Shown here piece by piece: positions 4,384 through 27,644 of a DNA stretch of 32,000 nucleotides (positions within the stretch are counted from its first letter, which is position 1; every line of letters starts with the position of its first letter). The stretch is from Gemmata obscuriglobus (GTDB taxonomy: Bacteria; Planctomycetota; Planctomycetia; Gemmatales; Gemmataceae). The stretch is from NCBI RefSeq assembly GCF_008065095.1, contig NZ_CP042911.1, positions 5,430,001-5,462,000 of the forward strand, given 5' to 3'. The notes below the pieces were generated by a model that saw only the letters and a program-made list of their open reading frames with translations, was not told the origin of the DNA and searched no databases. Position numbers and translations under genes: made by a program.

Positions 4384-4861
4384 GAGGAACCTCTATCGGT
4401 ACGGCAGTGATGGATACTGGGTGTTCGGCAGTGCGGCTCAAACGGTTTCGAGTTCCGAATCACTTGTGGTCAGCGCCAATCACCGCTGACGGGTTCTGCT
4501 TGCGGTGCAGAACTAAAAAACGGAACTAAAAACTTGCGAATCCAATTGGTAAGAAGTGTATCGCCGTAAAAAGGCGGGTACTAGAGCGCTTTGGGAAAAA
4601 CGGCGCGGAACTGGTATGTGTCCTTGGTCCTGTTCCGCCGCCCCTGCGACATCTGCTGGCCCCGCGGGCCGGAGCGGTCCGGGTTTTCTGGCAAACCTCT
4701 TTCTTGTCTCCGATTCTAACGCCCGGCTGTGCAAAAGAGGTACTGCCCTCACCAAATCTTAATTGTGGTGAAGGGCTTCCAGGGTAGAGTTATAACGGTA
4801 TCTCGCTGGCGGACCGATGGAACGACCAAAGGCGGCCGCAGCGGCTCTCACGGAGGGAGAT

Positions 4862-6930: not shown

Positions 6931-7704
6931 TTATTTTTCTATTCTCCACTCCCATTTTTTCAGTTGCGCCATGCGGACATGATCGGTGAGATCGAACTGG
7001 AGCGGCGTCACAGTGATGAAGCTCTCACGCAGTGCGTCAACATCGGTGTCCGGGTGCGGTTCCGGGCAGGTGAACTCCGGACTGGCCCAGAAGTAAGTCC
7101 GTCCGCGCTGGTTCACCCGCCGGTCGAACTTCTCCACGTACGGCGACACGTTTTGTGGTAGCACCTTCACGCCGCGGACGGGGCCACGTTCCAGCACAGG
7201 GATGTTGACGTTGAACAGGCTCCCGGCGCCAGGCTTTTGCGCCAGGATTTGCTCGATCACTTGGCGGGCGTAACGCGCGCCGGCCTGGTAGTCGTAAATT
7301 TTCTTGTCGTACTCGAGTGACACCGCGATTGCGGTCTGCTTGTAGAACGCGCCCTCAATCGCCGCCGCGACCGTACCCGAGTAGAGCACGTTGATGCCGG
7401 CATTGCTGCCCGCGTTCATGCCGCTGATGATGACGTCCGGGGGTTCCGGGAGCAGTTCCAGCAGCGCGAGTTTGACGCAATCGGCCGGGCGCCCCTCGAC
7501 CGCCCAACCCACGAACGTCCTCGCGTCGTCCTCGAACACCTCGTTCACGAGGAGTGGTGTGAGGAGCGTCACCGAGTGACCCGCAGCGCTCTGTTCGGTT
7601 GCCGGTGCCACGACTGTGACGGTCCCGAGTTTCATTAGCTCTAAACGGAGCGCGCGCAAGCCGGGGGCGTAAATGCCGTCATCATTGGTGAGCAGGATCC
7701 GCAT
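6931..7704 (-). CDS. surE: 5'/3'-nucleotidase SurE
   Basis: MRILLTNDDGIYAPGLRALRLELMKLGTVTVVAPATEQSAAGHSVT...VISGMNAGSNAGINVLYSGTVAAAIEG is the canonical SurE N-terminus and core. The track ORF starts at 7740, but the family-typical MRILLTNDDG start is the ATG at 7704, with a GAAGG upstream. Confidence 0.93.
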   Translation of the reverse strand: MRILLTNDDGIYAPGLRALRLELMKLGTVTVVAPATEQSAAGHSVTLLTPLLVNEVFEDDARTFVGWAVEGRPADCVKLALLELLPEPPDVIISGMNAGSNAGINVLYSGTVAAAIEGAFYKQTAIAVSLEYDKKIYDYQAGARYARQVIEQILAQKPGAGSLFNVNIPVLERGPVRGVKVLPQNVSPYVEKFDRRVNQRGRTYFWASPEFTCPEPHPDTDVDALRESFITVTPLQFDLTDHVRMAQLKKWEWRIEK

Positions 7705-7837
7705 TGCGTTCAACCTTCGCGAATTGCTGGCGCCATACAAAGAAGAAATTCTACGCAGCCCGTTGTCCGACCGGGGCGATTGTATTGAACTTACTGATGG
7801 TTACGTTTGTCCAGGCCCGGAGGGCCGCGCGTGCGAG

Positions 7838-12910: not shown

Positions 12911-15889
12911 TCACCCCACAGGTTGCGGCGTGATGGTCAGCGCGGCCCGCACCGCGGTCACGAGTTCCTGCGGCCGGTACGGCTTGCTCAACAGCCCCTG
13001 CGACCCGTCCAGCTCGCTCAGGTCGTCGGCCGCATACCCGGTCGAGAACAGCACCCGCACGTTCGGGTCAATGCGAATCATGTGCCGTGATGCCTCGCTC
13101 CCCGACATCCGCGGCATCGTCACGTCCAGAATCACCAGCGCAATGTCCTGCCACTCGCGGGTAAACACCTCGACCGCCTCTTGCCCGTCTTCGGCCAACA
13201 GGACGTGGTACCCGGCCCGGGAGAGCACCGCGAACCCGAGGTCGCGGATCATCTGCTCGTCGTCCACCAACAGGATCGTGGTCGGGGTGTGACCGTGCGG
13301 GGGCGGGAACGGCACCGGCAGCGGGGTCGGCGCCTGCGACCGCGACGGCGTCGCGATCAGTTCCGACACCGGCAGGTTCAGCTCCATCCGGGTGCCGGTG
13401 CCGGGCGCGGAATGGACCTCGATCCACCCGTGGTGCTGCTTCACGATGCCGTGAACCATCGGCAGCCCCAGGCCGGTGCCCTTACCGATGCCCTTGGTGG
13501 TGAAGAACGGCTCGAACAGCCGCGTCTTCACCTCGTCGGACATCCCGCACCCGGTGTCCGCGACCGTGAACCGCACGTACCGGCCGGGCGGCACGTCGTC
13601 CCACCCGGCCGGCACCGGGTCGTCGGGCCGCAGGTCCACGGGCCGCGCGGTGAACACCACCACCCCGCCGTCGGGCATCGCGTCGCGCGCGTTCAGCCCG
13701 AGGTTCATGATGGCCTGGACGAGCAGCGTCGGGTCTGCGTGGACCGGTGGGCAGTCGGGCGGCACGTCCACCGTCAAGCCGACCCGCGGCCCCACCGTAC
13801 ACCGCATCAGTCCGACCACCTCGTTGAGCGCCGCGAGCGGCTCGACCGGCGCGAACACGAGCTGGTTGCGCCGCGCGTACCCGAGCAGCTTGCGGGTCAG
13901 GTCGGCGGCCCGGGTCGCGGCCTGCTCCGCCGCGCAGACCAGTTCCCCGTTCGGGTCGTCGGGGCCGAGCCGCACCAGCGACAGGTTGCCCAGCACAGCG
14001 GTGAGCAGGTTGTTGAAGTCGTGCGCCACCCCGCCGGCCATCTGCCCGATGGCCTCCATCTTGTGCGCCTGCCGGAGCTGGTCCTCGAGCAGCCGGCGCT
14101 CGGTGACGTTGACCGACACGCCCAGGCCGTACTCGTAAGCCCCCCGCGCGTCGCGGATGGCCGCGAACGAGAGCTCGGCCCACACCACCTGGCCGTCGGG
14201 CCGCAGGTACCGCAGGGAGTACGCGAACCGGTCGCGGGCCCCGGCCCGCACCTCGTCCATCAGCGCCTGCTGCGCGGCCAGGTCCTCGGGGTGCGTGACG
14301 CTCGCCGGGGTGAGCTGGAGCACCTCCTCGACCGAGCGCCCGAGCATCGCGGCGAACGCCGGGTTGCACGACACGAACAGCCCGGCCGCGTTGGTCAGGG
14401 ACACCCCCGCCGAGGTGCTCTCGAAGATGCCGCGGAACATCCCCTCGCTGCGGCGCAGCTCCTCCTCGGCCTTGCGCCGCTCGGTCACGTCGTTGACCAG
14501 CGCCAGCTTCACCCCGCGGCCCTCCAGGCTGAGCGCGAACGACGACACCTCGACGTCCAGGAGCGCGCCGCTGCGGGTGCGGTGCCGGCGCAGCGCCGGC
14601 GGGCCGTCCGGGCGGCTGCTGTCGCCGGGCGCGAGCGGCGGCTCCGCGTCCAGCACCCGGATGTCGGACACGGTGAGCGTCAGGAACTCGTCGCGCGTGT
14701 ACCCGTACTTGCGCAGCGCCGCCTCGTTGATCGCCAGGACGCGGAGCGTCTGCGTGTCGTACACGAACACCGGGTGCGGCACCGCGCGGAACAGTTGCCG
14801 GTACCGCTCCTCGCTCTTGCGCAGCGCGTCCTCGGCGGCCTTCAGCGCCGAGATGTCCAGGGCCACGGTCACCACCCCGCGGGCGCCGGCCGGTTCGCTG
14901 TCGATCCCGTCGGGCATCCACAGCGGCGCCTTACTGGCGAGCCACGGGCGCTCGTCCCCGTTCGGCGCCGGGTACCGGGTCTCGAACTGGGTCGGGCGGC
15001 AGGTGGCCATCACCTCGCGGTCCCGCTCGGCGGTCTTCGCGCCGTGCGCCGGGCCGACCAGTTCGGTCGCGGTGCGCCCGACCGCGGCCTCCGGGGTGAC
15101 CCCGAGCAGCTCCGCCTGGAACTGGTTCATCACGAGATACCGGCCGTCCCGGTCCTTGGCGCTGATCGGCCCCGGGAACGCGTCGATGATGGCGCGGAGC
15201 AACTGCCCGGTCTGGCGCGCGCGGCGCTCGGCCGACTTGCGGCGGTCGATGTCCCGCTGGATCAGCACCCAGTGCGACAGCGTGCCGTCCGGGTCCGGCA
15301 CCGGCACCGCGCTGAGGTCCACCCAAAACGGGGTGCCGTCCTTTCGGTAGTTGCGCAACTCCACACGCAGCGAGGTGCCGGCGTCCATCGCGGTCGCGAG
15401 CCGGGCCAGCGTCTCGGGGTCGGTGCTGGCCCCGCGGAGCATGTACAGCGACCGCCCGATGACGTCGGCGCGCGAGTACCCGGTGAGCCGGCAGAACGCG
15501 TCGTTCACATACATAACGGACCGGCCCGGGCGGACGGGTCCAGGCACCGCTTCGACGATGGCGACCGCGTCGTGCGCGTGGATGACTGCCGATTCGAGCA
15601 ACCGGAGCCGCACGTCGGACTCCGGGAGCGAGTCCTGCGTGGCGCCGCGCGGCGCCGGGCGCGCCGGGGCGGCGGAGCGGGCACGCCATCCGACGACCGC
15701 CGCCCCCAGAACCAGTACGGCCACCAGCGGCGCCGCCGCCGCCGGAGCGGCGACGGTGATAGCGGCCGCGGCCCCGGCCCCGACGACCGCGAGGGCGGCC
15801 GACATCCATGGGAACGGTGGTTTCTGAGGTGCGTGTGTCACAAGCGATCCAACGAGGACCGGCGGCACGAGCCGCCGGGGCGGGGCCAC
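12911..15889 (-). CDS. Hybrid sensor histidine kinase: 2 TM helices, about 4 PAS domains, HisKA, HATPase_c and a C-terminal receiver
   Basis: The 992-aa ORF has N-terminal hydrophobic helices (ALAVVGAGAAAAITVAAPAAAAPLVAVLVLGAAVVGW) and four PAS-like segments (for example VNDAFCRLTGYSRADVIGRSLYML and FVSCNPAFAAMLGRSVEEVL). The H-box is MEAIGQMAGGVAHDFNNLL. The N/G boxes are NLGLNARDAM, DTGCGM and GKGTGLGL. The receiver is ILLVDDEQMIRD...LVILDVTMPRMSG. The start is GTG 15889 or ATG 15805. Confidence 0.92.
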   Translation of the reverse strand: MAPPRRLVPPVLVGSLVTHAPQKPPFPWMSAALAVVGAGAAAAITVAAPAAAAPLVAVLVLGAAVVGWRARSAAPARPAPRGATQDSLPESDVRLRLLESAVIHAHDAVAIVEAVPGPVRPGRSVMYVNDAFCRLTGYSRADVIGRSLYMLRGASTDPETLARLATAMDAGTSLRVELRNYRKDGTPFWVDLSAVPVPDPDGTLSHWVLIQRDIDRRKSAERRARQTGQLLRAIIDAFPGPISAKDRDGRYLVMNQFQAELLGVTPEAAVGRTATELVGPAHGAKTAERDREVMATCRPTQFETRYPAPNGDERPWLASKAPLWMPDGIDSEPAGARGVVTVALDISALKAAEDALRKSEERYRQLFRAVPHPVFVYDTQTLRVLAINEAALRKYGYTRDEFLTLTVSDIRVLDAEPPLAPGDSSRPDGPPALRRHRTRSGALLDVEVSSFALSLEGRGVKLALVNDVTERRKAEEELRRSEGMFRGIFESTSAGVSLTNAAGLFVSCNPAFAAMLGRSVEEVLQLTPASVTHPEDLAAQQALMDEVRAGARDRFAYSLRYLRPDGQVVWAELSFAAIRDARGAYEYGLGVSVNVTERRLLEDQLRQAHKMEAIGQMAGGVAHDFNNLLTAVLGNLSLVRLGPDDPNGELVCAAEQAATRAADLTRKLLGYARRNQLVFAPVEPLAALNEVVGLMRCTVGPRVGLTVDVPPDCPPVHADPTLLVQAIMNLGLNARDAMPDGGVVVFTARPVDLRPDDPVPAGWDDVPPGRYVRFTVADTGCGMSDEVKTRLFEPFFTTKGIGKGTGLGLPMVHGIVKQHHGWIEVHSAPGTGTRMELNLPVSELIATPSRSQAPTPLPVPFPPPHGHTPTTILLVDDEQMIRDLGFAVLSRAGYHVLLAEDGQEAVEVFTREWQDIALVILDVTMPRMSGSEASRHMIRIDPNVRVLFSTGYAADDLSELDGSQGLLSKPYRPQELVTAVRAALTITPQPVG

Positions 15890-16123: not shown

Positions 16124-18016
16124 ATGGGCCACCGCAACCTCGCCGCCGCCGTCACCGACCTCGAACGCGCGGGCCGGCTCGTTCGCATCGAGCCGGAAAT
16201 CGATCCGTACCTCGAAGCGGCCGAGATACACCGGCGCGCGTACCAAGCCGGCGGCCCGGCGCTGCTGTTCACACGGGTGAAGGGGAGCCCGTTCCCGATG
16301 GTGTCGAACGTGTTCGGCACACTGGACCGGGCGAAGTTTCTATTCCGCGACGCGCTGGAAGACGTGCGCAAACTCGTGGAGCTGAAAACCGACCCGGCAG
16401 CCATCCGCAAACGCCCTTGGCGGTACTGGAACCTCCCGTTCCTCGGGTGGAGGCTGCGCCCCAAGTTCGTGCGCAGCGGACCTATTTTAGGACACACGAC
16501 ACGTCTTTCGCAACTGCCTCAACTGAAGTGCTGGCCGCTCGACGGCGGACCGTTCGTGACGCTCCCGCAGGTGTACACCGAGCACCCGGACACGCCCGGG
16601 TGGATGAAATCGAACCTTGGTATGTACCGGGTCCAATTCGGCGGGAACGAGTACGTCCCGGACCGCGAAGCGGGGCTGCACTACCAGATCCACCGCGGGA
16701 TCGGGGTTCACCACGCCGCGGCCGTGCGGCGCGGGGAGCGGTTGCGGGTGAACGTGATCGTGGGCGGGCCGCCGGCGCTGGCGGTGGCGGCGGTGATGCC
16801 GCTCCCCGAGGGCCTGCCGGAACTGGCGTTTGCCGCCGCACTCGGCGGCAGACGGCTGGAGCTGGTGCGCGGCAAACCGGTCCCCACGGCAGGGGACAAA
16901 CCGGGGGCGTCCGGCCTGCCGATGCCCGCGGAAGCGGATTTCGTCCTCTCGGGCTGGATCGACCCGACGCGCACGAAGCCGGAGGGGCCGTTCGGCGACC
17001 ACCTCGGCTACTACAGTCTCACCCACGACTTCCCGGTGATGACGGTGGAAACGGTGTACCACCGCCCCGGCGCCATCTGGCCGTTCACGGTGGTCGGCCG
17101 CCCGCCCCAGGAGGACACGACGTTCGGCGAGTTGATTCACGAGTTGACCGGTCCGGTGATCCCGACGGTGATGCCTGGTTTACACGCGGTCCACGCCGTC
17201 GACGCCGCCGGAGTACACCCGCTGCTCCTGGCGATCGGGTCCGAGCGATACGTTCCGTACGCCGAAACCCGACGACCGCAGGAGTTACTCACGCTCGCGA
17301 ACGCGGTCCTGGGCCAGGGCCAGCTCTCGCTGGCCAAATACCTGCTCATCGTGGCAAAAGAGGACGCCCCGGACCTCGACATCCACGACATCAGCGCCTT
17401 CCTGCGGCACCTGCTGGAGCGTTTCGATCCGGAAAGCGACCTGCACTTTCAAACCCGCACCACGGTAGACACGCTCGACTATTCGCCGGGGCTGGGGCTC
17501 AACGCGGGGTCGAAACTGGTGCTGGCCGCCGCGGGTCCGAAGCGGCGCGAGCTGGCAACCGCGACACCGCCGGGTTTGACGCTGCCGGACGGTTTCGCCG
17601 ACCCGTGTGTCGTGCTGCCGGGGGTTCTCGCGGTGAAAGGCCCGCCGATTCGGAAATCGGGCTCGCGGTGCCAGATCGACGACGCGGACGTGACGTGGCT
17701 CTGTTCGCAGCTCGCGCAACAGGAACCGCAACTCGCCGGCTTCCCGCTGATCGTGGTTGTTGACGACAGCGAGTTCGTAGCTCGCACGCTGAACAACTTC
17801 CTGTGGGCGGTGTTCACACGGTCGGACCCGGCAAACGACGTGTACGGGGTGGGGTCGTTCACCCACCGGAAGCACTGGGGCTGTCGCGGGCCGGTGGTGA
17901 TCGACGCGCGCTTGAAGCCGCACATGCCGCCCCCGCTCGAAGTGCCGCCGGAGGTGACACGGAAAGTAGACACGCTGTTCGCGAAGGGCGGGCCGCTGGC
18001 GGGTGTTGAGAAGTGA
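16124..18016 (+). CDS. UbiD-family (prenyl-FMN dependent) decarboxylase, long form. A role in menaquinone (futalosine-route) biosynthesis is possible.
   Basis: The 630-aa ORF contains LVRIEPEIDPYLEAAEIHRRAYQAGGPALLFTRVKGSPFPMVSNVFGT, NLGMYRVQ, HRGIGVHH and EGPFGDHLGYY, which are UbiD family hallmarks. The ~600-aa length resembles UbiD homologues of futalosine-pathway organisms, but that pathway assignment is an inference. No UbiX or UbiA partner lies in the window. Confidence 0.88.
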   Translation: MGHRNLAAAVTDLERAGRLVRIEPEIDPYLEAAEIHRRAYQAGGPALLFTRVKGSPFPMVSNVFGTLDRAKFLFRDALEDVRKLVELKTDPAAIRKRPWRYWNLPFLGWRLRPKFVRSGPILGHTTRLSQLPQLKCWPLDGGPFVTLPQVYTEHPDTPGWMKSNLGMYRVQFGGNEYVPDREAGLHYQIHRGIGVHHAAAVRRGERLRVNVIVGGPPALAVAAVMPLPEGLPELAFAAALGGRRLELVRGKPVPTAGDKPGASGLPMPAEADFVLSGWIDPTRTKPEGPFGDHLGYYSLTHDFPVMTVETVYHRPGAIWPFTVVGRPPQEDTTFGELIHELTGPVIPTVMPGLHAVHAVDAAGVHPLLLAIGSERYVPYAETRRPQELLTLANAVLGQGQLSLAKYLLIVAKEDAPDLDIHDISAFLRHLLERFDPESDLHFQTRTTVDTLDYSPGLGLNAGSKLVLAAAGPKRRELATATPPGLTLPDGFADPCVVLPGVLAVKGPPIRKSGSRCQIDDADVTWLCSQLAQQEPQLAGFPLIVVVDDSEFVARTLNNFLWAVFTRSDPANDVYGVGSFTHRKHWGCRGPVVIDARLKPHMPPPLEVPPEVTRKVDTLFAKGGPLAGVEK

Positions 18017-18035: not shown

Positions 18036-19604
18036 TCAGCGAATGATCTTGCACGCCGGCAGCGCCTGCTGAAGGGCGGCAACCGCCGCAGCGGTTATGC
18101 CGCCGGAGTCGGTCAGCTCCAGGATGCGCAGAGAGACAAGCGCCCGCAGATGCGCCAGCCCGCGGTCGGTGAGCCGCGGGCACGCTCGCAGGTACAGTTG
18201 CCGCACCCCCCGGAAGCCCTTCAGTAGCGCCACGCCCGCGTCGGTGACGCCCTCGCAATACGAGAGGTTCAGGTAAACCAGTGCGTCGAGCCCGGCGAGC
18301 CGCCCCAAGGCGCGGGTGTCGTCCTCGGTGGCTGCGGAGTTGATCGAGAACCGGTACAACTCGCCCGGCACTACCCGCACCTCGCCCGGCGTCGCCGCGA
18401 CGAGGCGCCACTCGGCGCCCCGGGTGATAGCGCGCGAGTACCACCGCCCGCGTGCGCCGATGTCCAGCGTTTGCGTGACGAGCGCGGCGGACGCGGAAAC
18501 CGATGAGCCGAGCACGTCCATCGTCTCGGTCGGCTCGTCGCGCGAGTCCTCCGCCGCCTTCGGGGCCGATGCTTGCGGCACGGTCTTCTTGCTGAGCAGC
18601 GTGCCGAGTACCCGCTCCCACGAGCCGGCGTCGCGGGGCCGGCGGGCCGGGTCCAGGGCCACGCTGCGGGCCGTCAGAGCCGCCAATTCGGACGGAACTT
18701 TCAACGCGCGGAGGGCGTCCAGCACGTCCGGACCGGGCAGCACGTTCAGGTCGCCGAACATCATCTGATACGCCAGCACGCCGATCGCGTACACGTCGTC
18801 GCGCGGGTCCGGCGGGCTGCCCAGGAACTGTTCCTGCGGCGCGTACCGCGCGCTGCCGACAGATTGAAGCATGGTCGGCACGCGGACGTTGAGGCCCGAG
18901 CCGGACGACTCCGCGGACTTGTCGGCGCGCCCGGCCTCGACCGCCATCCCGCCGATGCCGAAGTCCGTGATCCGCGGCACGGTCCCGGCCATCAACACAT
19001 TCTGGGGTTTCAGGTCCCGGTGAACCAGCGGCGGCCGCAGGTGGTGGAATTGCGCGAGCGCGCCGGTGACCGCGTGCAGCACCCGGACCGCGCGCCCGAG
19101 CCGCCGCGGGGGCGGCAGCGCCGCCCACTGCGCGACCGCCTCCGCCAGCGTCCCGCCCTCGACGTACTCGTACATCAGCCACGGGATGTCGCCGCTCAGG
19201 TTGCACTCCAACAGCGGCACGATGTTCGGGTGGTCGCCCCCGTACTTCATGACGCGCGCGACCACCGCCCGTTCGTGGTGGACCAGTTGGTGCTTGGCGA
19301 CCGGGTCGGTGCAGAACTTGACCGCAGCGGCCCCCTTGCGCTCGTGCCGGGCGAGCCACACCTCGCCGAACCCGCCTCCGCCGAGCCGGCGCTCCAGGGT
19401 CCACATTTCAAGGTTCGGGAGCTGGTCGCCGGGCGCGAACTTCGGGGGCGGGGTCTGGCGCGAGATGTCGTCCCGCGACTGCGCTTGCGTGTGTTCGTGG
19501 TCGCTGTGGCCCATGACGGTTCCCGGAAGATGGTGGTTAGGATACCGCCGCAGGACGAGAATTGGAACGGCGTCCGGGAGCCCGCGCGGGCGCGCCCCAC
19601 TCAA
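18036..19604 (-). CDS. Ser/Thr protein kinase (paralog A) with a C-terminal cysteine-type leucine-rich repeat domain and no TM helix
   Basis: Kinase motifs: LGGGGFGEVWLARH, AAVKFCTD, HPNIVPLLECNL, VHRDLKPQNVLMAG, ITDFGIGG and YAPQEQ. The C-terminus is LDALVYLNLSYCEGVTDAGVALLKGFRGVRQLYLRACPRLTDRGLAHLRALVSLRILELTDSGGITAAAVAALQQALPACKII, an RNI/AMN1-like LRR. An alternative ATG start lies at 19514 (MGHSDHEHTQ). Confidence 0.9.
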   Translation of the reverse strand: MSGARPRGLPDAVPILVLRRYPNHHLPGTVMGHSDHEHTQAQSRDDISRQTPPPKFAPGDQLPNLEMWTLERRLGGGGFGEVWLARHERKGAAAVKFCTDPVAKHQLVHHERAVVARVMKYGGDHPNIVPLLECNLSGDIPWLMYEYVEGGTLAEAVAQWAALPPPRRLGRAVRVLHAVTGALAQFHHLRPPLVHRDLKPQNVLMAGTVPRITDFGIGGMAVEAGRADKSAESSGSGLNVRVPTMLQSVGSARYAPQEQFLGSPPDPRDDVYAIGVLAYQMMFGDLNVLPGPDVLDALRALKVPSELAALTARSVALDPARRPRDAGSWERVLGTLLSKKTVPQASAPKAAEDSRDEPTETMDVLGSSVSASAALVTQTLDIGARGRWYSRAITRGAEWRLVAATPGEVRVVPGELYRFSINSAATEDDTRALGRLAGLDALVYLNLSYCEGVTDAGVALLKGFRGVRQLYLRACPRLTDRGLAHLRALVSLRILELTDSGGITAAAVAALQQALPACKIIR

Positions 19605-19638
19605 CCCCTCTCCCCAGAAAGAAACGTCGGAACGCGCG

Positions 19639-20784
19639 TCACCCGCGCCCGGCCGTCGCGAGGTACAGGAGCGCGCTCGCCAGCAGGAGCATCATCACGA
19701 GCAGCCCCAACAGGGGTTGCGCCCACCACCACCCGCCCGTGAAGTGGTGGGCGCGCAGAGCAGTGGTGAGCGCCGACTCGTCCGCCGCGACCAGTTCCCG
19801 CTCCGGGGCCGGCGGCACGACCGGCACCGCACCGAGTTCGGACACGCTCAGCGGAACCGCTTCGGAGGGCCTCTGCGCCCGTTGCATCAGTTCCGCCAGA
19901 GCCACCTCCCACTCGCCCGCGTCCTTCGGGCGCCGGTCCGGGTTCGTCGCCACGCTGCTCACGATCAAGGCCACCAGTTCACCCGGCACGCGCAACTGAC
20001 GCAGCTCGTCCTTGACATCGGGGCCGGGGGCAACGGTCACGTCGCCGACAAGGGCCTGATACGCTATCACCCCGAGCGCGTGAACGTCGTCGCGCGGGTC
20101 CGGAGGGCTGCCGAGCCGCTGCTCGACCGGAGCGTAATTGGCGCTACCCGCGGCCTGAAGCCCGGTCGGAACGCGGGCGGCGAGCGCGGTGCCGGCCGCT
20201 TCCACGTCCCGGGGCACGGGGACCCCGCCGATGCCGAAATCAATGATCCGCGGCACCTTCCCGCCGGCCATCAGCACGTTCTGCGGCTTCAGGTCGCGAT
20301 GAATCAACGGGGGGCGCAGCCGGTGGAACACCGCAAGGGCGCTGGCGAGAGCGTAGAGCGTGCGCACGGTGCGCCCCATGCGCTTCGTGAGTGGCAGGGA
20401 GCGCCACTGGGCGAGGGCGCTCGCGAGGGTGCCGCCCTCCACGAACTCGTACATCAGCCACGGCACGTCGCCGTCCAGGTTGCACTCCAGCAGCGGAACG
20501 ATGTTCGGGTGCGCGCCGGCGTAGCGCATCACGCGGAGCACCACGTTCTTTTCGTGGGTGACGAGCCGGAGCCGCGCGCCGGAATCGGTGCAAAACTTGA
20601 CCGCCCGGGGCGGTTCCTTCGCGTTCCAGGCGTGCCGGGCGAGCCACACCTCGCCGAACCCGCCAACCCCGAGCCGGCCTTCCAGCACCCAACTGCTCAA
20701 CCCGGGAACCGGTGCTCCGGCCGTGAGGGGAGCGGCGGCACCGTTCGAAGTTTGCTGGGGAACGCCTTCGGCACGCTCGCTCAT
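19639..20784 (-). CDS. Ser/Thr protein kinase (paralog B) ending in a single C-terminal TM helix (tail-anchored, no ectodomain)
   Basis: MSERAEGVPQQT...LGVGGFGEVWLARH, RAVKFCTD, HPNIVPLLECNLDGDVPWLMYEF, IHRDLKPQNVLMAGGKVPRIIDFGIGG. The protein ends ...GGWWWAQPLLGLLVMMLLLASALLYLATAGRG followed by the stop. The track ORF extends to 21444, but that extension overlaps the divergent gene and has no kinase similarity. The ATG at 20784 gives an N-terminal length comparable to paralogs A and C. Confidence 0.88.
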   Translation of the reverse strand: MSERAEGVPQQTSNGAAAPLTAGAPVPGLSSWVLEGRLGVGGFGEVWLARHAWNAKEPPRAVKFCTDSGARLRLVTHEKNVVLRVMRYAGAHPNIVPLLECNLDGDVPWLMYEFVEGGTLASALAQWRSLPLTKRMGRTVRTLYALASALAVFHRLRPPLIHRDLKPQNVLMAGGKVPRIIDFGIGGVPVPRDVEAAGTALAARVPTGLQAAGSANYAPVEQRLGSPPDPRDDVHALGVIAYQALVGDVTVAPGPDVKDELRQLRVPGELVALIVSSVATNPDRRPKDAGEWEVALAELMQRAQRPSEAVPLSVSELGAVPVVPPAPERELVAADESALTTALRAHHFTGGWWWAQPLLGLLVMMLLLASALLYLATAGRG

Positions 20785-20991
20785 GAAAGCTCGATCTCGG
20801 TGCGGGACCGCGACTCGATGTGAACGGGTAACGCCTGAATTGTATCCCCTGACCCGACCGTTCGGGAGCGCGACTTTCGCTCTCTCGGGGGTGCGGCGCA
20901 GGTAGCCGTCGGACGGCACGACAGCCCGTATACTCCTCTGGGGCACACGCGCGCCCGCACTTCTGACCTCGGCACAAGGAAGGGCCGACCG

Positions 20992-22440
20992 TTGCTTCAA
21001 TCCGTCCTCGTCGCGGCCACGCTGGCAACCGTCTGGGGCGTCTGGGCCGCCCGGAAACGGTTCCGCCCCAAAGCACGCGCCATGAAGCAGTACGCCCGCT
21101 CGCTCGTCGCGGACCCGGACGGTCACCGGGAACTCGACGAAGAGTACGAGCGGCGCTACGCGCTCCGGAACGCCGCCGAAGCCGCACCGTTGCTCACTCC
21201 GGCGGAACTGCCCGCCGCGATCGCCGATCTGCTTGACGCAGACCCGATCCGCTGCGACGCGGCCGAGATTCGCATCAAGAAGGTACTGGCGACGGCTGAA
21301 CCTCAGCTGCTCGCGGCCATCGACGCCCCCCGAGCCACCTGGGACAGAGACGAAAGCCAGGGCGTACCGACGGCCTCGGCCGAGCGGGTGGTCCGCCTGC
21401 TCGCCGAGCTCCCCTCGCGGGCACTGGGCGACCGCATCGGCCACCTGGTCGGTCGCCCCGAATGGTACGTCTCCAACCCCGCAATCAAAGCCCGCACCGC
21501 GCTGGGCCGCGCCGACCAGCTCCCCTTTGTGCTAGAGCAACTCGCCAAGCAGTCCCGACCGGCCCAAGAGGGGGTCGAACTGGCCATTGAGCAGGGCTGG
21601 GCGGAACCGGAGTTCCTCGACGGGATACGGGTATGGGCCGAGCGAACCGCCCTCGATCCCGCGCTGCCGTTCTCGTACTGGGCAGTCGGGTTCCACGCGC
21701 GGTACGGTGGGGCAGCCGCTCTCGAAGCCCTCAGCAGCCCGCAGGTACTGTCGGTTGCGAACGACCGAACCGTTCATGCCGCGCTCAAGCAACTGAACGA
21801 GCACGGCGTAAAACTCGATGCGAAAGTGGTGCGCCCGCTGCTCGATGCCGCGCTCACCCGCACGGCCATCTGGCCCTGGAACTGCACGTTCGGCCCGGCG
21901 CTGCGCGCGCTGGCGGCCACGGAGCCGGAGGCCGCCCTCCGCACTGCCGAAGAGTACCTCGATCGCCCCGACCACCCGTACCACCGCGAAGCGATCGACT
22001 TCGTTCGGGAGACAGCCGGACTACCCGCATCGGACGATCTCGAGCTACCGGTTGGGATGGAACTAACCGAAGGCGAACGGACGACCCTGGGGCACCTGAC
22101 CGACTGCCGGGTGCTCTACTGGGAGGTGTGCAACGGCGGACTCAGTCAGTACTTCTTCAACTCCGCCGGGGCCAATTGGCGCCGGCACGCGGCGGCGCTA
22201 CGGGCGATCGGGTTCGAGGCGGGGGCGGCGGCCCTCGAAGAAGCGGCGCGGGTGATCCACCCGGACGGCGCGAGTACCAACCGCGGCACACGCATCGCTC
22301 AGTACGCCGCCCTATCGGAGCGCCAGGAAAAGCGCCTGGACAAATTGAGCCCGCTGTTCTGGTCGGACGTGCCGCGGCTCCGGTTCATGTTGCGTCACCG
22401 GGAGCTCTTCGCCCGGCTTCGCGCGGCCCGGGAGCGGTAG
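20992..22440 (+). CDS. Membrane-anchored alpha-helical protein with a C-terminal DUF4375 / DMP19-like domain. Function unknown.
   Basis: The 482-aa ORF has very high GC3. An AAGGAAGGG lies about 8 nt upstream of the TTG start. The N-terminal hydrophobic helix is LQSVLVAATLATVWGVWAA. The C-terminal segment LYWEVCNGGLSQYFFNSAGANWRRHAAALRAIGFEAGAAALEEAARVI matches my recollection of the DUF4375 signature (..vnNGGf.Qyf.Ns.g......al..iGa......l..A). The central part is helical-repeat-like. Confidence 0.8.
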   Translation: MLQSVLVAATLATVWGVWAARKRFRPKARAMKQYARSLVADPDGHRELDEEYERRYALRNAAEAAPLLTPAELPAAIADLLDADPIRCDAAEIRIKKVLATAEPQLLAAIDAPRATWDRDESQGVPTASAERVVRLLAELPSRALGDRIGHLVGRPEWYVSNPAIKARTALGRADQLPFVLEQLAKQSRPAQEGVELAIEQGWAEPEFLDGIRVWAERTALDPALPFSYWAVGFHARYGGAAALEALSSPQVLSVANDRTVHAALKQLNEHGVKLDAKVVRPLLDAALTRTAIWPWNCTFGPALRALAATEPEAALRTAEEYLDRPDHPYHREAIDFVRETAGLPASDDLELPVGMELTEGERTTLGHLTDCRVLYWEVCNGGLSQYFFNSAGANWRRHAAALRAIGFEAGAAALEEAARVIHPDGASTNRGTRIAQYAALSERQEKRLDKLSPLFWSDVPRLRFMLRHRELFARLRAARER

Positions 22441-22454
22441 CTGTCTGTATTGCG

Positions 22455-24584
22455 TTACTCGGGTATCCAGCACACGCGAACCCCGATGTCTGGCCGCCGG
22501 GCCTCGGGCGAGTGCCAGTTGCGGTTCGCGGACCGGGCGTCGTGCGGCTGGTTGAACCACGAGCCGCCGCGCACCACCCGCGCGATCGTCCCGTCGTACT
22601 TGTTCTCACACCACTCCCACACGTTCCCGTGCATGTCGCACAGGCCCCACGGGTGCGGGTGCTGGCCCGCGTAGCTGCCGACCACAGCCGGGCGGTCCAA
22701 ATTCGGCCCTTTGGACGCGGTGCCGAAGGGCGCGGTGCCGTCCACGTTCGCCTGCGTCCCGTTCAACTCGCGGCCGAAGTGGAACGGATGCGAACCGGAA
22801 TCGGTGCCGCGACACGCGTACTCCCACATGTCCTCGGTCGGCAGCGCGAACCGGCCCCGGGCGCTCGCCCGCGCGGCGATCCCGTTGAGCCGCGCAACGA
22901 ACTCCTGGCACTCGTTCCACGTCACCCCCTCGACCGGGAACCGAATTGTATCGGCGCTCGAGCCGAGTTTGTCCGCGTGGCTCCTGCCGGGCCGGAAGTG
23001 GCTCGGCTGTGCGAACGGCGTGTCGGCCATCACCGCCGCCCATTCTGCCTGCGTCACCTCGTACCGCCCCAGCCAGAACCCCGGCGTGCGGAACCGGCCC
23101 CGCGTGTCTTCGGCCTCAGCACTGATGCGAAGCGGGCTCTGGTTGAACTGCTTGAGGACGGCCTCGCGCTCGGACGCGGGCGAACCGAGCTGGCGTTCGC
23201 CGGGTGGCACCCAGCAGAACGTCATTTCCGACCCGCCCGGCAGCGGCACCGCGCGCACCTCGCCGGGGTACGTGCCCGCGGTGCCGCGGAACCGCCCGGG
23301 GCCGCCCGAAACGACGTACACAACGCCCGCCACCAGCACCCCGAACACCAGCAGCGCCGCGACCGCCACCCAGGCGTTCGTCACCTGACGGACCCGGCCG
23401 CGGCCCGAAGAAACGGTCGGCCCCACGCGCCAGTTCGCTTTGATTCGGGACGCATCGGTCCGTTTCGACGGCACGGACGGTTCCGGCAGCGGTGCGGGCG
23501 GTTCTGGCAAAGAAGACGCCCGAAACGTTTCCGTGCGCGCGGCCAACGTGGCGGTTGACGGGGACACGTCAACCGTTTCGGGGGCCGGCGGGTCGTCGTG
23601 TTCAATGTCGGGGTGCGTTTTACACAGCAGCGCCCCGAGCGCATCTTCCCACTCCGTCGCGCTGTGCGGGCGGCTTTCGGGGTTGATCGACGCGCTGCGC
23701 AAAACCAGCTCGACGAGCACTTCGGGCGCGTGCAGCTTTCGGAGCTCGTAGGCCGCGTCTGTACCCGGCGCTGTGTTGATGTCGGCCGTCACGAGTTGGT
23801 AAGCGATGATCCCGAGCGCGTACACGTCGTCGCGCGGATGAGGCTCGCTGCCGAGCAACTGTTCCTGCGGGGCGTAGATGCGCGTCCCCGCTGCCCGCAG
23901 TTCCGATGGCAGGCGCGCCGCTACGGCCGTGGAGGACCCGAAATCGGTCTTGCCCGACGGGTGTAGTGCGATGCCGCCGATGCCGAAATCAGTGATCCGC
24001 GGCACCTTCCCGCCGGCCATCAGCACGTTGTGCGGCTTCAGGTCGCGGTGGACCAGCGGCGGGTCGAACCGGTGGCACGCGCCCAGCGCGGCCGTCAGCT
24101 CGTAGAGCGTCTGAACCGCGAGATCGATGCGCCGGCGCGGCGACATGCGACGCCACTTTGCGAGCGTGCTCGCGAGGGTGCCGCCCGGCACGAACTCGTA
24201 CATCAGCCACGGCACGTCGCCGTCCAGATTGCACTCCAACAGCGGCACGATGTTCGGGTGCTTGCCGGCGTACTTCATCACCCGGCGCACGACGTTTTGC
24301 TCGTGCGTCACGAGTTGGTGCCGCGCACCGGGGTCGGTACAGAACTTGACCGCACGCGGGGGCTGTTCGGCGTCCCAGGCGTGCCGGGCCAGCCACACCT
24401 CACCGAACCCGCCGCCGCCGAGTTTCTGCTCAAGTACCCAACTGTTGAGCCCCGGAACCGGGCTCCCGCTCGCGAACACTGGGAGCACACCAGGCGCTAA
24501 TCGGGGTGCGTCGAATGGGGTGCGCGCGCGGGTGGTGTTTTCGAAAGTACTGCTCATGGGCCGCTCGGGTGAGGGCGTAACCAC
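22455..24584 (-). CDS. Ser/Thr protein kinase (paralog C) with a TM helix and an extracytoplasmic FGE-sulfatase-fold (SUMF1/EgtB/PvdO-like) domain
   Basis: Kinase motifs: LGGGGFGEVWLARH, RAVKFCTD, HPNIVPLLECNLDGDVPWLMYEF, VHRDLKPHNVLMAGGKVPRITDFGIGG. The TM helix is AWVAVAALLVFGVLVAGVVYVV (about 23324-23393). The C-terminal part reads FWLGRYEVTQAEWAAVM...EGVTWNECQEFVARLN...LPTEDMWEYACRG...GLCDMHGNVWEWCEN...VVRGGSWFNQPHDARSANR, an FGE-sulfatase fold. The start is GTG 24584 or ATG 24557 (MSSTFENT). Confidence 0.92.
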   Translation of the reverse strand: MVTPSPERPMSSTFENTTRARTPFDAPRLAPGVLPVFASGSPVPGLNSWVLEQKLGGGGFGEVWLARHAWDAEQPPRAVKFCTDPGARHQLVTHEQNVVRRVMKYAGKHPNIVPLLECNLDGDVPWLMYEFVPGGTLASTLAKWRRMSPRRRIDLAVQTLYELTAALGACHRFDPPLVHRDLKPHNVLMAGGKVPRITDFGIGGIALHPSGKTDFGSSTAVAARLPSELRAAGTRIYAPQEQLLGSEPHPRDDVYALGIIAYQLVTADINTAPGTDAAYELRKLHAPEVLVELVLRSASINPESRPHSATEWEDALGALLCKTHPDIEHDDPPAPETVDVSPSTATLAARTETFRASSLPEPPAPLPEPSVPSKRTDASRIKANWRVGPTVSSGRGRVRQVTNAWVAVAALLVFGVLVAGVVYVVSGGPGRFRGTAGTYPGEVRAVPLPGGSEMTFCWVPPGERQLGSPASEREAVLKQFNQSPLRISAEAEDTRGRFRTPGFWLGRYEVTQAEWAAVMADTPFAQPSHFRPGRSHADKLGSSADTIRFPVEGVTWNECQEFVARLNGIAARASARGRFALPTEDMWEYACRGTDSGSHPFHFGRELNGTQANVDGTAPFGTASKGPNLDRPAVVGSYAGQHPHPWGLCDMHGNVWEWCENKYDGTIARVVRGGSWFNQPHDARSANRNWHSPEARRPDIGVRVCWIPE

Positions 24585-24643
24585 ACAAGCATCATCTAGA
24601 ACGCGATTGACTGCCCACGCGCGGGCCGGGACGAATCACGAAG

Positions 24644-24961
24644 TTAGTGTTCGACCTGAAACCACTCGCTCCCACTGGCCTCATACTTGGTGTAAGTGTC
24701 GTCGGTGTCAACGGGTGCCACTTCGACGCCACCCGCGCGAAGTGCATCGGCCAGCGGCTCGGCCGCCGCGACCTCCACCATGTACTGACGCGACACCCGC
24801 CCGCCCACGAGTTCGAACGTCACCGCCTCGGCGTAAAGTGCTTCGTAGGTGTCGGGTTGCGTGCGAAGCAGGTGCGACCAGAAGGCCGTCAGGCGAGACT
24901 TGAACGCCGGTGCCGGTTCGTCGGCGTTGGCGAGCAGCGTCAGGCACAGGTATTCGGTCAT
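24644..24961 (-). CDS. Hypothetical 105-aa acidic protein, probably co-transcribed with kinase paralog C
   Basis: An ATG-to-TAA ORF with strongly GC-biased third positions, checked codon by codon. It runs in the same direction as the kinase gene and ends 60-87 nt upstream of it. I recognise no domain (MTEYLCLTLLANADEPAPAFKSRLTAFWSHLL...EASGSEWFQVEH). Confidence 0.7.
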   Translation of the reverse strand: MTEYLCLTLLANADEPAPAFKSRLTAFWSHLLRTQPDTYEALYAEAVTFELVGGRVSRQYMVEVAAAEPLADALRAGGVEVAPVDTDDTYTKYEASGSEWFQVEH

Positions 24962-25121: not shown

Positions 25122-27644
25122 ATGCAGACGCGATCCCGCCTCTGGTCGCTATTTGTCGCCGCACTGGTTGCTCCTTGCGCCCTTGCCTCCCGAACCGACG
25201 CCGCCGAGATCAACTCCGCCGACGTAAAGAGCATCGCCGTTTACCCCGCGAAGGTGACGCTGGTCGGTGCCGACGACGCGGCGCAACTGATTGTGACCGG
25301 AACGCTTGCGAGCGGGCAAACGGTGGACCTCACCGCCGAAGCGCAGTACCTCATTGCGGACGGCAAATCGGCCACGGTGACCGCCGGGCGCCTCGTGCCC
25401 AAGGCCGACGGCACCACGGACATCGCGATCACCTTCGGCGGTCGGGCCGTGCGGGTTCCGCTGAGCGTGAAAAGCGTGGGTGAGAGCCTGCCGCTCAACT
25501 TTACGAACCAGGTCGTGCCGGTGTTCACGAAGCTCGGGTGTAACTCGGGCGGGTGCCACGGAAAGCTCGCCGGGCAGAACGGTTTCCGGCTCTCGCTCCT
25601 CGGGTTCGAGCCGGACCTCGATTACGCCACACTTGTGAAGGAAGCCCGCGGGCGGCGCCTGTTCCCGGCCAGCCCGGACGCCTCCCTCTTCCTGACGAAG
25701 GCCACGGGGCGCGCCCCGCACGGCGGCGGCAAGAAGATGGAGCCCGACAGCGACGAGTACAAGCTGGTGCGGCGCTGGATCGCCGCCGGGATGCCGTGGG
25801 GCGAGGAGAAGGACCCGAAGGTCACGCGGATCAGCGTCTACCCCGAACACCGGGTACTGAGCCGGCACGGCAAGCAGCAGTTCGCGGTGTACGCGCACTA
25901 CACCAACGGCGCCGTCGAGGACATCACCCGCCGGGCGCAGTACGAGAGCAACGACACCGAGATCGCGACCGTCGACGAGCGGGCACAGGTCCGCACGCTC
26001 GGCATGAGCGGCGAGGCGGCCATCATGGCGCGGTATCAGGGCATGGTCGCGGTGTTCCGCGCCACGGTCCCGCTGGGGGTGAAAACTCCCGCGTGGGAGT
26101 TCGCCGAAAAGACCGTTGTTGACAAGTTCACCGCCAAAAAGTGGCGCGAACTCGGGCTGGTCCCATCAGACCTGTGCGGTGACGAGCAGTTCGTCCGCCG
26201 CGTGTTCATCGACATCACCGGGACGTTCCCCACGGCGAAACAGGTCACCGACTTCGTTGCGGACAAGGACCCGGCGAAGCGTGACAAGCTCGTGGACGCG
26301 CTGGTGGAGACCCCGGAGTACGCCTACTACTTCGCGAACAAGTGGGCTGACATCCTCCGCGTGAAGCGGCGCCAGGAGCAAAACCGGGCACAGGGCACGT
26401 TCGCGTTCCACGAGTGGATCCGCGAGCAGGTGGCCGCGGACACGCCGTACAGCGAGTTCGTCCGGGCCATCGTCGCCAGCACCGGCGACGAGCGGAAGTC
26501 CCCGCCGACCGTGTGGTACAAGGAAATCGATAAGGCCGAGCAGTTCGTGGACGACGTGAGCCAGGTGTTCCTGGGCCAGCGACTGTCGTGCGCGAACTGC
26601 CACCATCACCCCTACGAGAAGTGGTCGCAGGACGATTACTGGAGTCTGGCGGCGTTCTACGCCCGCGTGGGGCGGAAAGAGGCGCGGCTCCCGAGCGCGG
26701 ACCCGAACCGACAAGACAACCGCGTCCAGACGGTCTACATCCGCACCATCGGGAACGTGACCAACAAGCGGACCCAGAAGCCGGCCGAGGCGAAGCCGCT
26801 CGACGGCGACCCGATGACCATTCCCGTGGACGAGGACCCGCGCCAGAAGTTGGTGGACTGGATGGTGTCGCCCAAGAACCCGTTCTTCGCGAAGACGGTG
26901 GCGAACCGGTACTGGGCGCACTTCTTCGGCCGCGGCATCGTCGACCCGCTCGACGACATGCGGATCACCAACCCGCCGAGCAACCCGGAGCTGCTCGACG
27001 CACTCACGCAGAGCGTGATCGACAGCAAGTACAGCTTGAAGGCGCTCATTAAGACGATCTGCAAGAGCCGGACGTACCAGCTCTCGAGCGCGCCGAACGA
27101 GTTCAACAAGCACGACAAGCAGGCCTACGCCCGGTACTACCCGCGGCGGCTCCAGGCGGAAGTGCTGCTGGACGCGCTGTGCCAGGTGACCGACAGCCCA
27201 TCGCGGTACAACGGGCTGCCGGCCGATAAGAACGCCCCGAACCGCGCGATCATGCTGCCGGACGAGTCGTTCCAGTCGTACTTCCTGGACGTGAACGGGC
27301 GCCCGCAGCGGATCAGCGCGTGCGAGTGCGAACGGGTGAGCGAGGCGAACCTGGCGGCCGTGCTGCACATGCTCAACAGCGACGAGGTGCAGGGCAAGAT
27401 CAGTCGCGGCGGTGGTCGGGCGGACCGGCTCGCGAAGGCCGACGACAAGCGCCCCGACGAGGAGAAGGTGACGGAGCTATTCCTGTCGGCGTTCTCACGG
27501 AAGCCGACGGCGGACGACCTCGCGACGGCGATCGAGCACATCAAGAAGTTGGAGGCCAAGAGCGGAGCGGCCGGCAAGAAGACCGCTTACGAGAACATCC
27601 TCTGGGCGCTGGTGAACACCAAGGAGTTTTGGTTCAACCAGTAA
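25122..27644 (+). CDS. Planctomycete PSD1-type protein: signal peptide, two Ig-like (Big_2) domains, DUF1549 and DUF1553
   Basis: The signal peptide is MQTRSRLWSLFVAALVAPCALASRTDA. Big_2-like segments include IAVYPAKVTLVGADDAAQLIVTG... and ISVYPEHRVLSRHGKQQFAVYAHY.... DUF1549-type motifs are FTKLGCNSGGCHGKLAGQNGFRLSLLGFEPDLDY and CANCHHHPYEKWSQDDYW. The DUF1553-type C-terminus is LAAVLHMLNSDEV...ILWALVNTKEFWFNQ. Confidence 0.92.
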   Translation: MQTRSRLWSLFVAALVAPCALASRTDAAEINSADVKSIAVYPAKVTLVGADDAAQLIVTGTLASGQTVDLTAEAQYLIADGKSATVTAGRLVPKADGTTDIAITFGGRAVRVPLSVKSVGESLPLNFTNQVVPVFTKLGCNSGGCHGKLAGQNGFRLSLLGFEPDLDYATLVKEARGRRLFPASPDASLFLTKATGRAPHGGGKKMEPDSDEYKLVRRWIAAGMPWGEEKDPKVTRISVYPEHRVLSRHGKQQFAVYAHYTNGAVEDITRRAQYESNDTEIATVDERAQVRTLGMSGEAAIMARYQGMVAVFRATVPLGVKTPAWEFAEKTVVDKFTAKKWRELGLVPSDLCGDEQFVRRVFIDITGTFPTAKQVTDFVADKDPAKRDKLVDALVETPEYAYYFANKWADILRVKRRQEQNRAQGTFAFHEWIREQVAADTPYSEFVRAIVASTGDERKSPPTVWYKEIDKAEQFVDDVSQVFLGQRLSCANCHHHPYEKWSQDDYWSLAAFYARVGRKEARLPSADPNRQDNRVQTVYIRTIGNVTNKRTQKPAEAKPLDGDPMTIPVDEDPRQKLVDWMVSPKNPFFAKTVANRYWAHFFGRGIVDPLDDMRITNPPSNPELLDALTQSVIDSKYSLKALIKTICKSRTYQLSSAPNEFNKHDKQAYARYYPRRLQAEVLLDALCQVTDSPSRYNGLPADKNAPNRAIMLPDESFQSYFLDVNGRPQRISACECERVSEANLAAVLHMLNSDEVQGKISRGGGRADRLAKADDKRPDEEKVTELFLSAFSRKPTADDLATAIEHIKKLEAKSGAAGKKTAYENILWALVNTKEFWFNQ

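Follow-up and report, generated by a model that had tools for sequence, protein, structure and literature searches.

Related Hanks-type kinases are encoded side by side in the actinobacterial pknA-pknB operon, as in Mycobacterium, at least one of them with an extracytoplasmic sensor, and this operon with its PASTA sensors also holds the phosphatase PstP, FHA proteins, and cell-wall genes. Gemmataceae carry 98-140 serine/threonine kinases (STKs); among their partner domains, FGE/SUMF1 ranks third in frequency and lies in the periplasm in single-pass STKs (PMC11032199). Expansion of these kinases by paralogisation and domain shuffling has already been described for Gemmataceae (PMC11032199, PMC8567305), and tandem duplication of STKs is known in myxobacteria (Perez et al. 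2008, as cited in PMC11032199). Here, a locus of Gemmata obscuriglobus is described that encodes three STKs, designated A, B, and C, together with two further genes, D and E105. It lies in a window of 32,000 nucleotides (contig NZ_CP042911.1, positions 5,430,001 to 5,462,000), a term used for the whole stretch of DNA that was analyzed and to whose first letter all window positions refer. An earlier note on this DNA had delimited five open reading frames (ORFs) in this region, and all five are present at those positions in the ORF list. It had proposed that they form one coherent sensing module. Homology, domain architectures, phylogeny, and synteny, which were observed directly, make it quite probable that the locus is a tandem array of paralogous Hanks-type kinases with domain shuffling in a conserved chromosomal slot, and not a five-gene system.

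Heads and tails of the kinases A, B, and C

Kinases A (18036-19604), B (19639-20784), and C (22455-24584) are all encoded on the minus strand and are Hanks-type STKs with a common divergent head, which is marked by the motifs AVKFCTD, HPNIVPLLECNL, PWLMYE, and DFGIGG. The Pfam model Pkinase matches A, B, and C with 85.5, 73.8, and 87.5 bits, respectively, at a cut-off of 31.7. The head motifs that had been quoted as common to the three kinases are invariant in a three-way alignment, and the catalytic motifs G(G/V)GGFGEV, AVKF, HRDLKP(Q/H)N, DFG, and AP(Q/V)E occur in all three heads. As the Gly-rich loop, the AVK lysine, HRDLKPxN, DFG, and APxE are all kept, the heads of A, B, and C should be catalytically competent and constitute active kinases.

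In pairwise alignments, the heads are 66.7% (A/B), 58.1% (A/C), and 65.3% (B/C) identical at the protein level and 72-74% identical at the DNA level, so that their earlier description as near-identical was overstated. That the similarity is visible in the DNA was correct, as a repeat search of the window recovered three direct repeats for the heads that are 67-87% identical. The fourth kinase of the window (1-1304) had been credited with a different head and is indeed just 27-28% identical to A, B, and C. Likewise, the tails downstream of the catalytic domain had been regarded as unrelated, and no similarity was found when those of A, B, and C were compared mutually (local scores 23-39).

Between the three heads, synonymous divergence (dS) amounts to 0.73-0.88, the longest exact DNA match spans 32-39 nt, and only 63-64% of the identical residues also share the codon. 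The dS values, the short exact matches, and the limited identity of the repeats indicate that the heads are old duplicates without evident gene conversion. It is highly unlikely that their similarity is maintained by ongoing gene conversion, that is, by concerted evolution and not by purifying selection on old paralogues. This explanation could draw on the exact matches of up to 39 nt and on one 90-nt window of B versus C with 94% DNA identity, but that window corresponds to HPNIVPLLECNLDGDVPWLMYEFV, a motif that is invariant, and the genome has a GC content of ~0.87 at third codon positions; both the overall dS and the low codon identity among identical residues speak against it. In addition, the paralogues group with orthologues from other genera, which is the opposite of concerted evolution. 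When gene conversion was tested as the earlier note had suggested, neither dN/dS nor sliding-window identity, exact matches, or tree topology lent it support.

The three tail architectures described in the earlier note, a soluble cysteine-type leucine-rich repeat (LRR) in A, only a terminal transmembrane (TM) helix in B, and a TM helix followed by an FGE-fold ectodomain in C, are all borne out. The ORF of A begins with TTG at 19604 and contains the kinase head at 18597-19403; the likely true start is the ATG at 19514, which yields a protein of 492 aa in agreement with the gene call of the orthologue in G. algarum (492 aa). No TM helix is predicted in A. The tail of A matches human FBXL2 in its cysteine-containing LRRs (PDB 6o60_C, E = 6.4e-24), while the Pfam model LRR_6 stays below threshold in this region (E = 0.0017). 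Unlike FBXL2, A has no F-box, carries its LRRs on a bacterial kinase, and has only about 4 repeats. The LRR of A presumably serves as a protein-protein docking module. Kinase B (381 aa) ends in a C-terminal hydrophobic tail anchor, predicted at residues 354-379. It is 96% identical to protein P0001 of Gemmata sp. JC717 and appears to be a Gemmata-specific paralogue, the B clade holding only Gemmata sequences.

The ORF of C begins with GTG at 24584, and its ectodomain matches FGE-sulfatase (PF03781) at residues 457-705 with 116.5 bits at a cut-off of 23.3. The likely true start is the ATG at 24557, resulting in a protein of 700 aa, which agrees with the gene call in G. algarum; a single TM helix is predicted at residues 391-421 of 700. 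Catalytic FGE/SUMF1 proteins have a pair of copper-binding catalytic cysteines after a GGS(W/F) motif. This catalytic cysteine pair was not found in the ectodomain of C, where the GGSW region reads RGGSWFNQPHDARSANRNW and contains no cysteine. The closest solved structures are those of PvdO (5hha), SUMF2 (1y4j), and PorK. As no cysteine follows GGSW and these best relatives are non-catalytic, the ectodomain of C is an FGE-like, that is, pFGE/PvdO-like, non-catalytic domain and not an FGE; it is periplasmic and presumably ligand-binding. It thus shares with pFGE/SUMF2, PvdO, and PorK/GldK the membership in the FGE-sulfatase fold family without the catalytic cysteine pair, and it differs from them in being fused to a kinase via a TM helix.

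A chromosomal slot with a varying number of kinases

Relatives of the kinase head were sought in one genome per species, covering 185,579 species, in which G. algarum, as the closest genome there, served as a proxy for G. obscuriglobus, which itself did not appear in the scan. This search yielded 202 relatives, and the best-scoring 80, which were kept, come nearly all from Gemmataceae or Gemmatales. Among these best 80 of 202 (head identity ~40% or more), G. algarum has four family members at two loci, namely the array of three genes and one singleton. With only two G. algarum loci among the kept relatives, the subfamily is small and lineage-restricted, and the adjacency of three members points to duplication and not to chance. 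This supports the view that the kinase cluster is no random scatter. The contrary case, a very large family scattered at random, is not what was found, since the subfamily is lineage-restricted and 202 relatives were found in 185,579 genomes.

Every protein of the window was compared with 81 loci by tblastn (loci are given as L numbers). G. algarum JC717 and JC673 share the five-gene layout, and their flanking genes are 96-98% identical to those of the window. In Gemmata and Frigoriglobus, a conserved slot was recognized in which a divergent PSD1/PSCyt2 gene is followed by E105 and by one to four family kinases, toward which a UbiD gene converges. The PSD1 protein of the window is 82% identical to the orthologue that adjoins E105 in Frigoriglobus tundricola, and the UbiD orthologue adjoins the last kinase in L003, L013, L022, L024, L026, and L027. 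Adjacency of family members, and of E105 to the first kinase, therefore recurs in genomes of both genera, as the synteny check showed.

The content of the slot differs between genomes. In L026, PSD1 is followed by E105, a kinase, an LRR-tailed kinase, and the convergent UbiD gene, and in L013 (Gemmata sp. IIL30) and L014, PSD1 and E105 precede an LRR-tailed kinase, with UbiD next in L013. L017 contains E105 followed by an FGE-tailed kinase, a kinase, and an LRR-tailed kinase, and L031 contains E105, a kinase, and an LRR-tailed kinase. Four family kinases in tandem on one strand are encoded at 6466-12959 of L005 (uncultured Frigoriglobus, CAZBXY010000039.1). F. tundricola (L002, CP053452.2) has PSD1, IS1595, E105, and a single kinase; this kinase (P0010, 413 aa) belongs to the FGE-tailed C-type clade and has lost the ectodomain. 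The kinase number thus varies from 1 to 4 between genomes.

Two side observations concern the same genomes. The ORF of an IS1595-family transposase is located between PSD1 and E105 of F. tundricola (L002, 8769-9302). In some Frigoriglobus genomes, the subfamily has also grown far larger than in Gemmata, and the uncultured Frigoriglobus metagenome-assembled genome (MAG) of L005 has at least nine family members at five loci (L005, L008, L018, L024, and L031).

A bootstrapped neighbour-joining (NJ) tree of 55 heads, based on distances calculated with numpy, contains an A-type clade (bootstrap 100) that is entirely LRR-tailed and a C-type clade (bootstrap 100) that is nearly entirely FGE-tailed and includes the F. 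tundricola kinase, both with sequences from Gemmata and Frigoriglobus. The B clade (bootstrap 100) is composed of Gemmata sequences only and is a weak sister of the C clade. A fourth clade consists of kinases of ~400 aa without the AVKFCTD motif, some of which are encoded in the same slot beside UbiD (L022, L024, and L027). The A and C paralogues of G. obscuriglobus are placed with their orthologues from other genera and not with their neighbours, and the A-type and C-type clades predate the split of Gemmata and Frigoriglobus. Adjacent homologues on the same strand, a phylogeny of duplication, and a varying copy number, which together define a tandem paralogue array, are all found at this locus.

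According to the tandem-array reading, one Gemmatales-specific kinase subfamily would have undergone duplication in situ ahead of the Gemmata/Frigoriglobus split, and the copies would have kept the catalytic cytoplasmic head while gaining or losing C-terminal modules and so diversifying. Copy numbers of 1-4 in the slot are what would be expected if the similar heads had taken part in unequal crossing-over. Gene D would have landed inside the array only in the lineage of G. obscuriglobus and G. algarum, and E105 would be an independent small protein at the array edge. In the most likely mechanism, each kinase would act as an independent sensor or transducer with its own input, cross-talk being possible, and the kinases would share the head because they descend from one ancestor and may act on common substrates, with no dedicated relay involved. 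In such a division of tasks, C would sense a periplasmic ligand via its FGE-like domain, B would be tail-anchored, and A would be cytosolic and dock partners via its LRRs.

Gene D and the small protein E105

The remaining two genes of the region are D (20992-22440, plus strand, 482 aa) and E105 (24644-24961, minus strand, 105 aa), which are 100% identical to GobsT_46490 and GobsT_46510 of G. obscuriglobus, respectively. E105 precedes C on the same strand at a spacing of 59-86 nt, C and D are convergent with a gap of 14 nt, D and B are divergent with a gap of 207 nt, and A follows B on the same strand at a spacing of 34-124 nt. As D is transcribed toward C and away from B, gene orientation indicates at least three transcription units for the five-gene region. 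A sigma-70 promoter scan of the window gave no match, and shuffled sequence held more terminator-like sites than the window did, both scans being uninformative for a planctomycete.

D matches DMP19 (PF14300) at residues 371-461 with 57.7 bits at a cut-off of 25 (E = 2e-15). Its AlphaFold2 model is all helical, with a predicted local distance difference test score (pLDDT) of 92.3, and consists of an N-terminal hydrophobic helix, an ARM/HEAT-like solenoid of ~300 residues, and a C-terminal DMP19/DUF4375 bundle. Foldseek searches with this model retrieved only designed or eukaryotic ARM repeats at low TM-scores. Concerning the previous description of D as a membrane-anchored protein that is divergent from B, convergent with C, and DUF4375/DMP19-like at its C-terminus, orientation and C-terminal domain stand, while membrane anchoring by the N-terminal helix is only probable, given the moderate hydrophobicity of this helix (Kyte-Doolittle 1.55). 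Over its last 110 residues, D matches the domain of the Neisseria DNA mimic DMP19 (PF14300; PMC3384305). In contrast to this protein, a small acidic stand-alone mimic of double-stranded DNA, D has 482 aa and additionally comprises the hydrophobic helix and the ARM/HEAT-like solenoid. DNA mimicry by D can thus not be assumed from the presence of a DMP19 domain.

The family of D comprises 30 full-length homologues of ~485 aa with 46-87% identity over the full length, and those with a named source are all planctomycete, mostly Gemmata. It is restricted to Gemmataceae-like sequences, and its members always stand alone in varied contexts (including L146-L149). Among the compared loci, D is part of a kinase locus only in L001 and L003, and the kinase loci with a D homologue are confined to G. 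algarum. No kinase was found near the D orthologues of five other contigs within the available sequence of up to ~8 kb on each side. The neighbours there include genes for a carbamoyltransferase and an ABC transporter, type II secretion and SMC-like genes, MsrAB and DinB, FG-GAP, and riboflavin genes. This confinement to the kinase loci of G. obscuriglobus and G. algarum, together with the kinase-free contexts elsewhere, indicates that D is a lineage-specific insertion into the kinase array.

The distribution of D bears directly on the proposal of a single coherent module of A, B, C, D, and E105 for multi-input sensing or surveillance, which is very improbable. The genes are contiguous, and their arrangement is identical in G. 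algarum JC673 and JC717, but G. algarum is so closely related, as seen from the 96-98% identity of the flanks, that the shared layout amounts to simple inheritance. The orientation of D separates the region into several transcription units, no other locus of the kinase family contains D, and the D orthologues have no kinase neighbours. Linkage of the five genes is not conserved beyond close relatives, as that of D is limited to G. obscuriglobus and G. algarum and that of E105 to the Gemmata/Frigoriglobus clade, and the five-gene module is largely refuted.

The small orphan ORF noted earlier upstream of C could be confirmed as a conserved gene. E105 has 140 homologues, nearly all of 104-107 aa and with 55-100% identity, whose alignment contains 24 invariant columns, including a C-terminal His, and a C-terminal EWFQxxH motif. 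No entry of Pfam or NCBIfam matched E105. Its AlphaFold2 model (pLDDT 93.4) has a ferredoxin-like alpha/beta fold of beta-alpha-beta topology, for which Foldseek found only generic ferredoxin-like matches in the PDB (BLUF, ACT, S6, and BMC; TM-score <= 0.51, E >= 6e-3). An exhaustive profile search among 1.84 billion representative proteins returned no more than 62 relatives and connected E105 to no known family; two longer matches resemble low-complexity noise. E105 is therefore a real, strongly conserved orphan gene that is restricted to Gemmataceae-like sequences.

The most constant neighbour of E105 in the window and in L082-L145 is the divergent PSCyt2/PSD1 (DUF1549/DUF1553) gene and not a kinase, and in E105-anchored loci kinases do not exceed this gene in frequency as neighbours. 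A family kinase is encoded downstream of E105 in only four of these loci (L087, L088, L101, and L120), in which E105 is at least 60% identical to the copy of the window. In the others, the downstream position is taken by a 340-aa multi-TM protein (L082-84, L089, L098, L107, and L143) or by unrelated genes. Conversely, E105 is present in 11 of the ~26 evaluable kinase loci of at least 51% identity. As a kinase follows in only four E105-anchored loci and other genes elsewhere, E105 does not appear to be a dedicated kinase partner, and its adjacency to kinases seems confined to the Gemmata/Frigoriglobus clade. There, E105 and the first kinase, of whatever type, probably share a transcript.

For the same clade, it was considered whether E105 belongs to a functional operon with the kinase array, acting there as a substrate, regulator, or chaperone of the kinases, whose periplasmic, membrane, and cytosolic inputs would lead to a common output. 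This is unlikely. E105 is very strongly conserved and lies directly upstream of the kinase head on the same strand, usually at a distance of 150-250 nt and irrespective of the kinase type that comes first (L002, L010, L014, L017, L020, L022, L026, L031, L087, L088, L101, and L120). However, its absence from more than half of the evaluable kinase loci and the other genes downstream of most E105 copies argue against an operon, and the adjacency would be trivial for a gene located directly beyond the end of an array that grows and shrinks by unequal crossing-over. The more specific version, a true operon in which E105 is the shared substrate or allosteric partner of kinases that sample three compartments, in a compact multi-input hub that arose by tandem duplication, is graded as quite improbable.

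Some points nevertheless weigh against the preferred reading of a tandem array with E105 as an independent edge gene, and the first two of them also favor an operon. The linkage of E105 and kinase persists where PSD1 or UbiD was undetected (L010, L017, L020, and L031), and the gap between E105 and C in the window is as short as given above and contains no terminator-like site. Furthermore, family members have been kept adjacent across genus-level divergence, which could be due to selection for co-regulation. The deep nodes of the NJ tree are weak, with 42% for the B/C sister node, so that the origin of B is uncertain, and the estimate of family size is based on G. algarum and MAGs in place of the complete kinome of G. 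obscuriglobus.

Several observations concern the surroundings of distant E105 homologues. The ~340-aa protein encoded 3' of them (7476-8495 in L082 and 7406-8428 in L083) has several hydrophobic helices and a beta-rich C-terminal part and has no Pfam match; the E105-associated copies compared are 45% identical to each other. The idea that it is a degenerate kinase was rejected, as it is a multi-TM protein unrelated to kinases, and it is absent from the window. A conserved ORF of 184 aa is located 5' of E105 in L082, L107, and L143, and E105, the 340-aa protein, and the 184-aa ORF may constitute a different small conserved gene cluster. In L082, a metagenomic contig, a 1202-aa Pkinase-Tubulin_2 fusion (2343-5951, minus strand) is encoded ~1 kb upstream of the E105 homologue; tubulin-like domains fused to planctomycete STKs have been mentioned before (PMC11032199).

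Flanking genes and comparison with known systems

The slot is bordered on one side by a UbiD-family decarboxylase gene (16124-18016, plus strand; Pfam UbiD, UbiD_C, and UbiD_N), which is convergent with A at a gap of 19 nt, and on the other side by the gene for an 840-aa PSCyt2/PSD1 (DUF1549/DUF1553) protein (25122-27644, plus strand; PSCyt2 159 bits, PSD1 152 bits in Pfam), which is divergent from E105 at a gap of 160 nt. According to Pfam, the neighbours of the array are UbiD, a PAS hybrid histidine kinase, GT2 glycosyltransferases, and PSD1. The hybrid histidine kinase (992 aa, 12911-15889, minus strand), two genes off the array, has three PAS domains, HisKA, HATPase_c, and a receiver domain, and with the kinase at 1-1304 it makes the window rich in signalling genes besides the array. 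Further away, a Peptidase_S8 subtilase fused to FG-GAP repeats (2227-4383, minus strand) adjoins a second FG-GAP protein (4817-6133, plus strand), and SurE (6931-7740) and an inorganic pyrophosphatase (1536-2096) are encoded near these FG-GAP proteins. Scans of the window with Rfam and for tRNA found no RNA gene.

Matches of A, B, and C to models of defence systems raised the question whether they are anti-phage or abortive-infection kinases of the PD-T4-6, MADS Mad6, or PglW-like type in a defence island. The PADLOC models PD-T4-6 and mad6 match the three kinases at 104-120 bits and the NCBIfam model antiphage_MADS6 at 81-89 bits. These matches are generic, however, as the unrelated housekeeping-type kinase at 1-1304, used as a control in PADLOC, scores 323 bits, and the curated cut-off of the NCBIfam model is 460. 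In addition, no other defence genes, mobile-element signatures, or compositional anomaly were found in the window, and the locus is syntenic across genera. With a control kinase scoring about threefold higher and NCBIfam scores far below the cut-off, assignment to a defence system was rejected and has to be regarded as extremely improbable.

Compared to the pknA-pknB operon, the locus of G. obscuriglobus has no PstP, FHA, or cell-wall genes and no PASTA domains according to Pfam. No phosphatase, FHA protein, or other relay component was found with Pfam among the gene products of the locus, so that the multi-input phospho-relay suggested in the earlier note is unsupported. To our knowledge, earlier work has drawn no particular attention to the AVKFCTD subfamily, to its conserved slot, or to its LRR_CC-tailed member. 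The locus represents a clean, datable case of how the unusually large kinome of Gemmataceae grows, in which one head appears to have been duplicated in place and re-tailed for the periplasm, the membrane only, or the cytosol, and the expansion and contraction of an array at a fixed chromosomal slot make it a useful case study. A, B, and C are candidates for asking whether paralogous kinases share substrates, and both the E105 family and the ~485-aa family combining an ARM solenoid with a DMP19 domain are worth annotating.

The closest likeness is found in the STK repertoire of Gemmataceae and other Planctomycetota (Mahajan et al. 2020b; Seeger et al. 2021, PMC8567305; GBE 2024, PMC11032199), which also features cytoplasmic Pkinase heads with varied C-terminal modules, single-pass TM kinases with a periplasmic FGE domain, and gains that are lineage-specific and recent (PMC8567305, PMC11032199). 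In contrast to the analysis of a single locus, this literature treats the kinome globally. The tandem STKs of myxobacteria, as far as they are covered by the citation of Perez et al. (2008) in PMC11032199, resemble the array in being adjacent paralogous kinases that were duplicated and then diverged; they belong to another phylum and to other subfamilies, whereas the Gemmata paralogues are older than the genus split and have clade-specific tails. The kinase array of G. obscuriglobus thus follows the ordinary, described route of kinase expansion in Gemmataceae and is no new kind of system.

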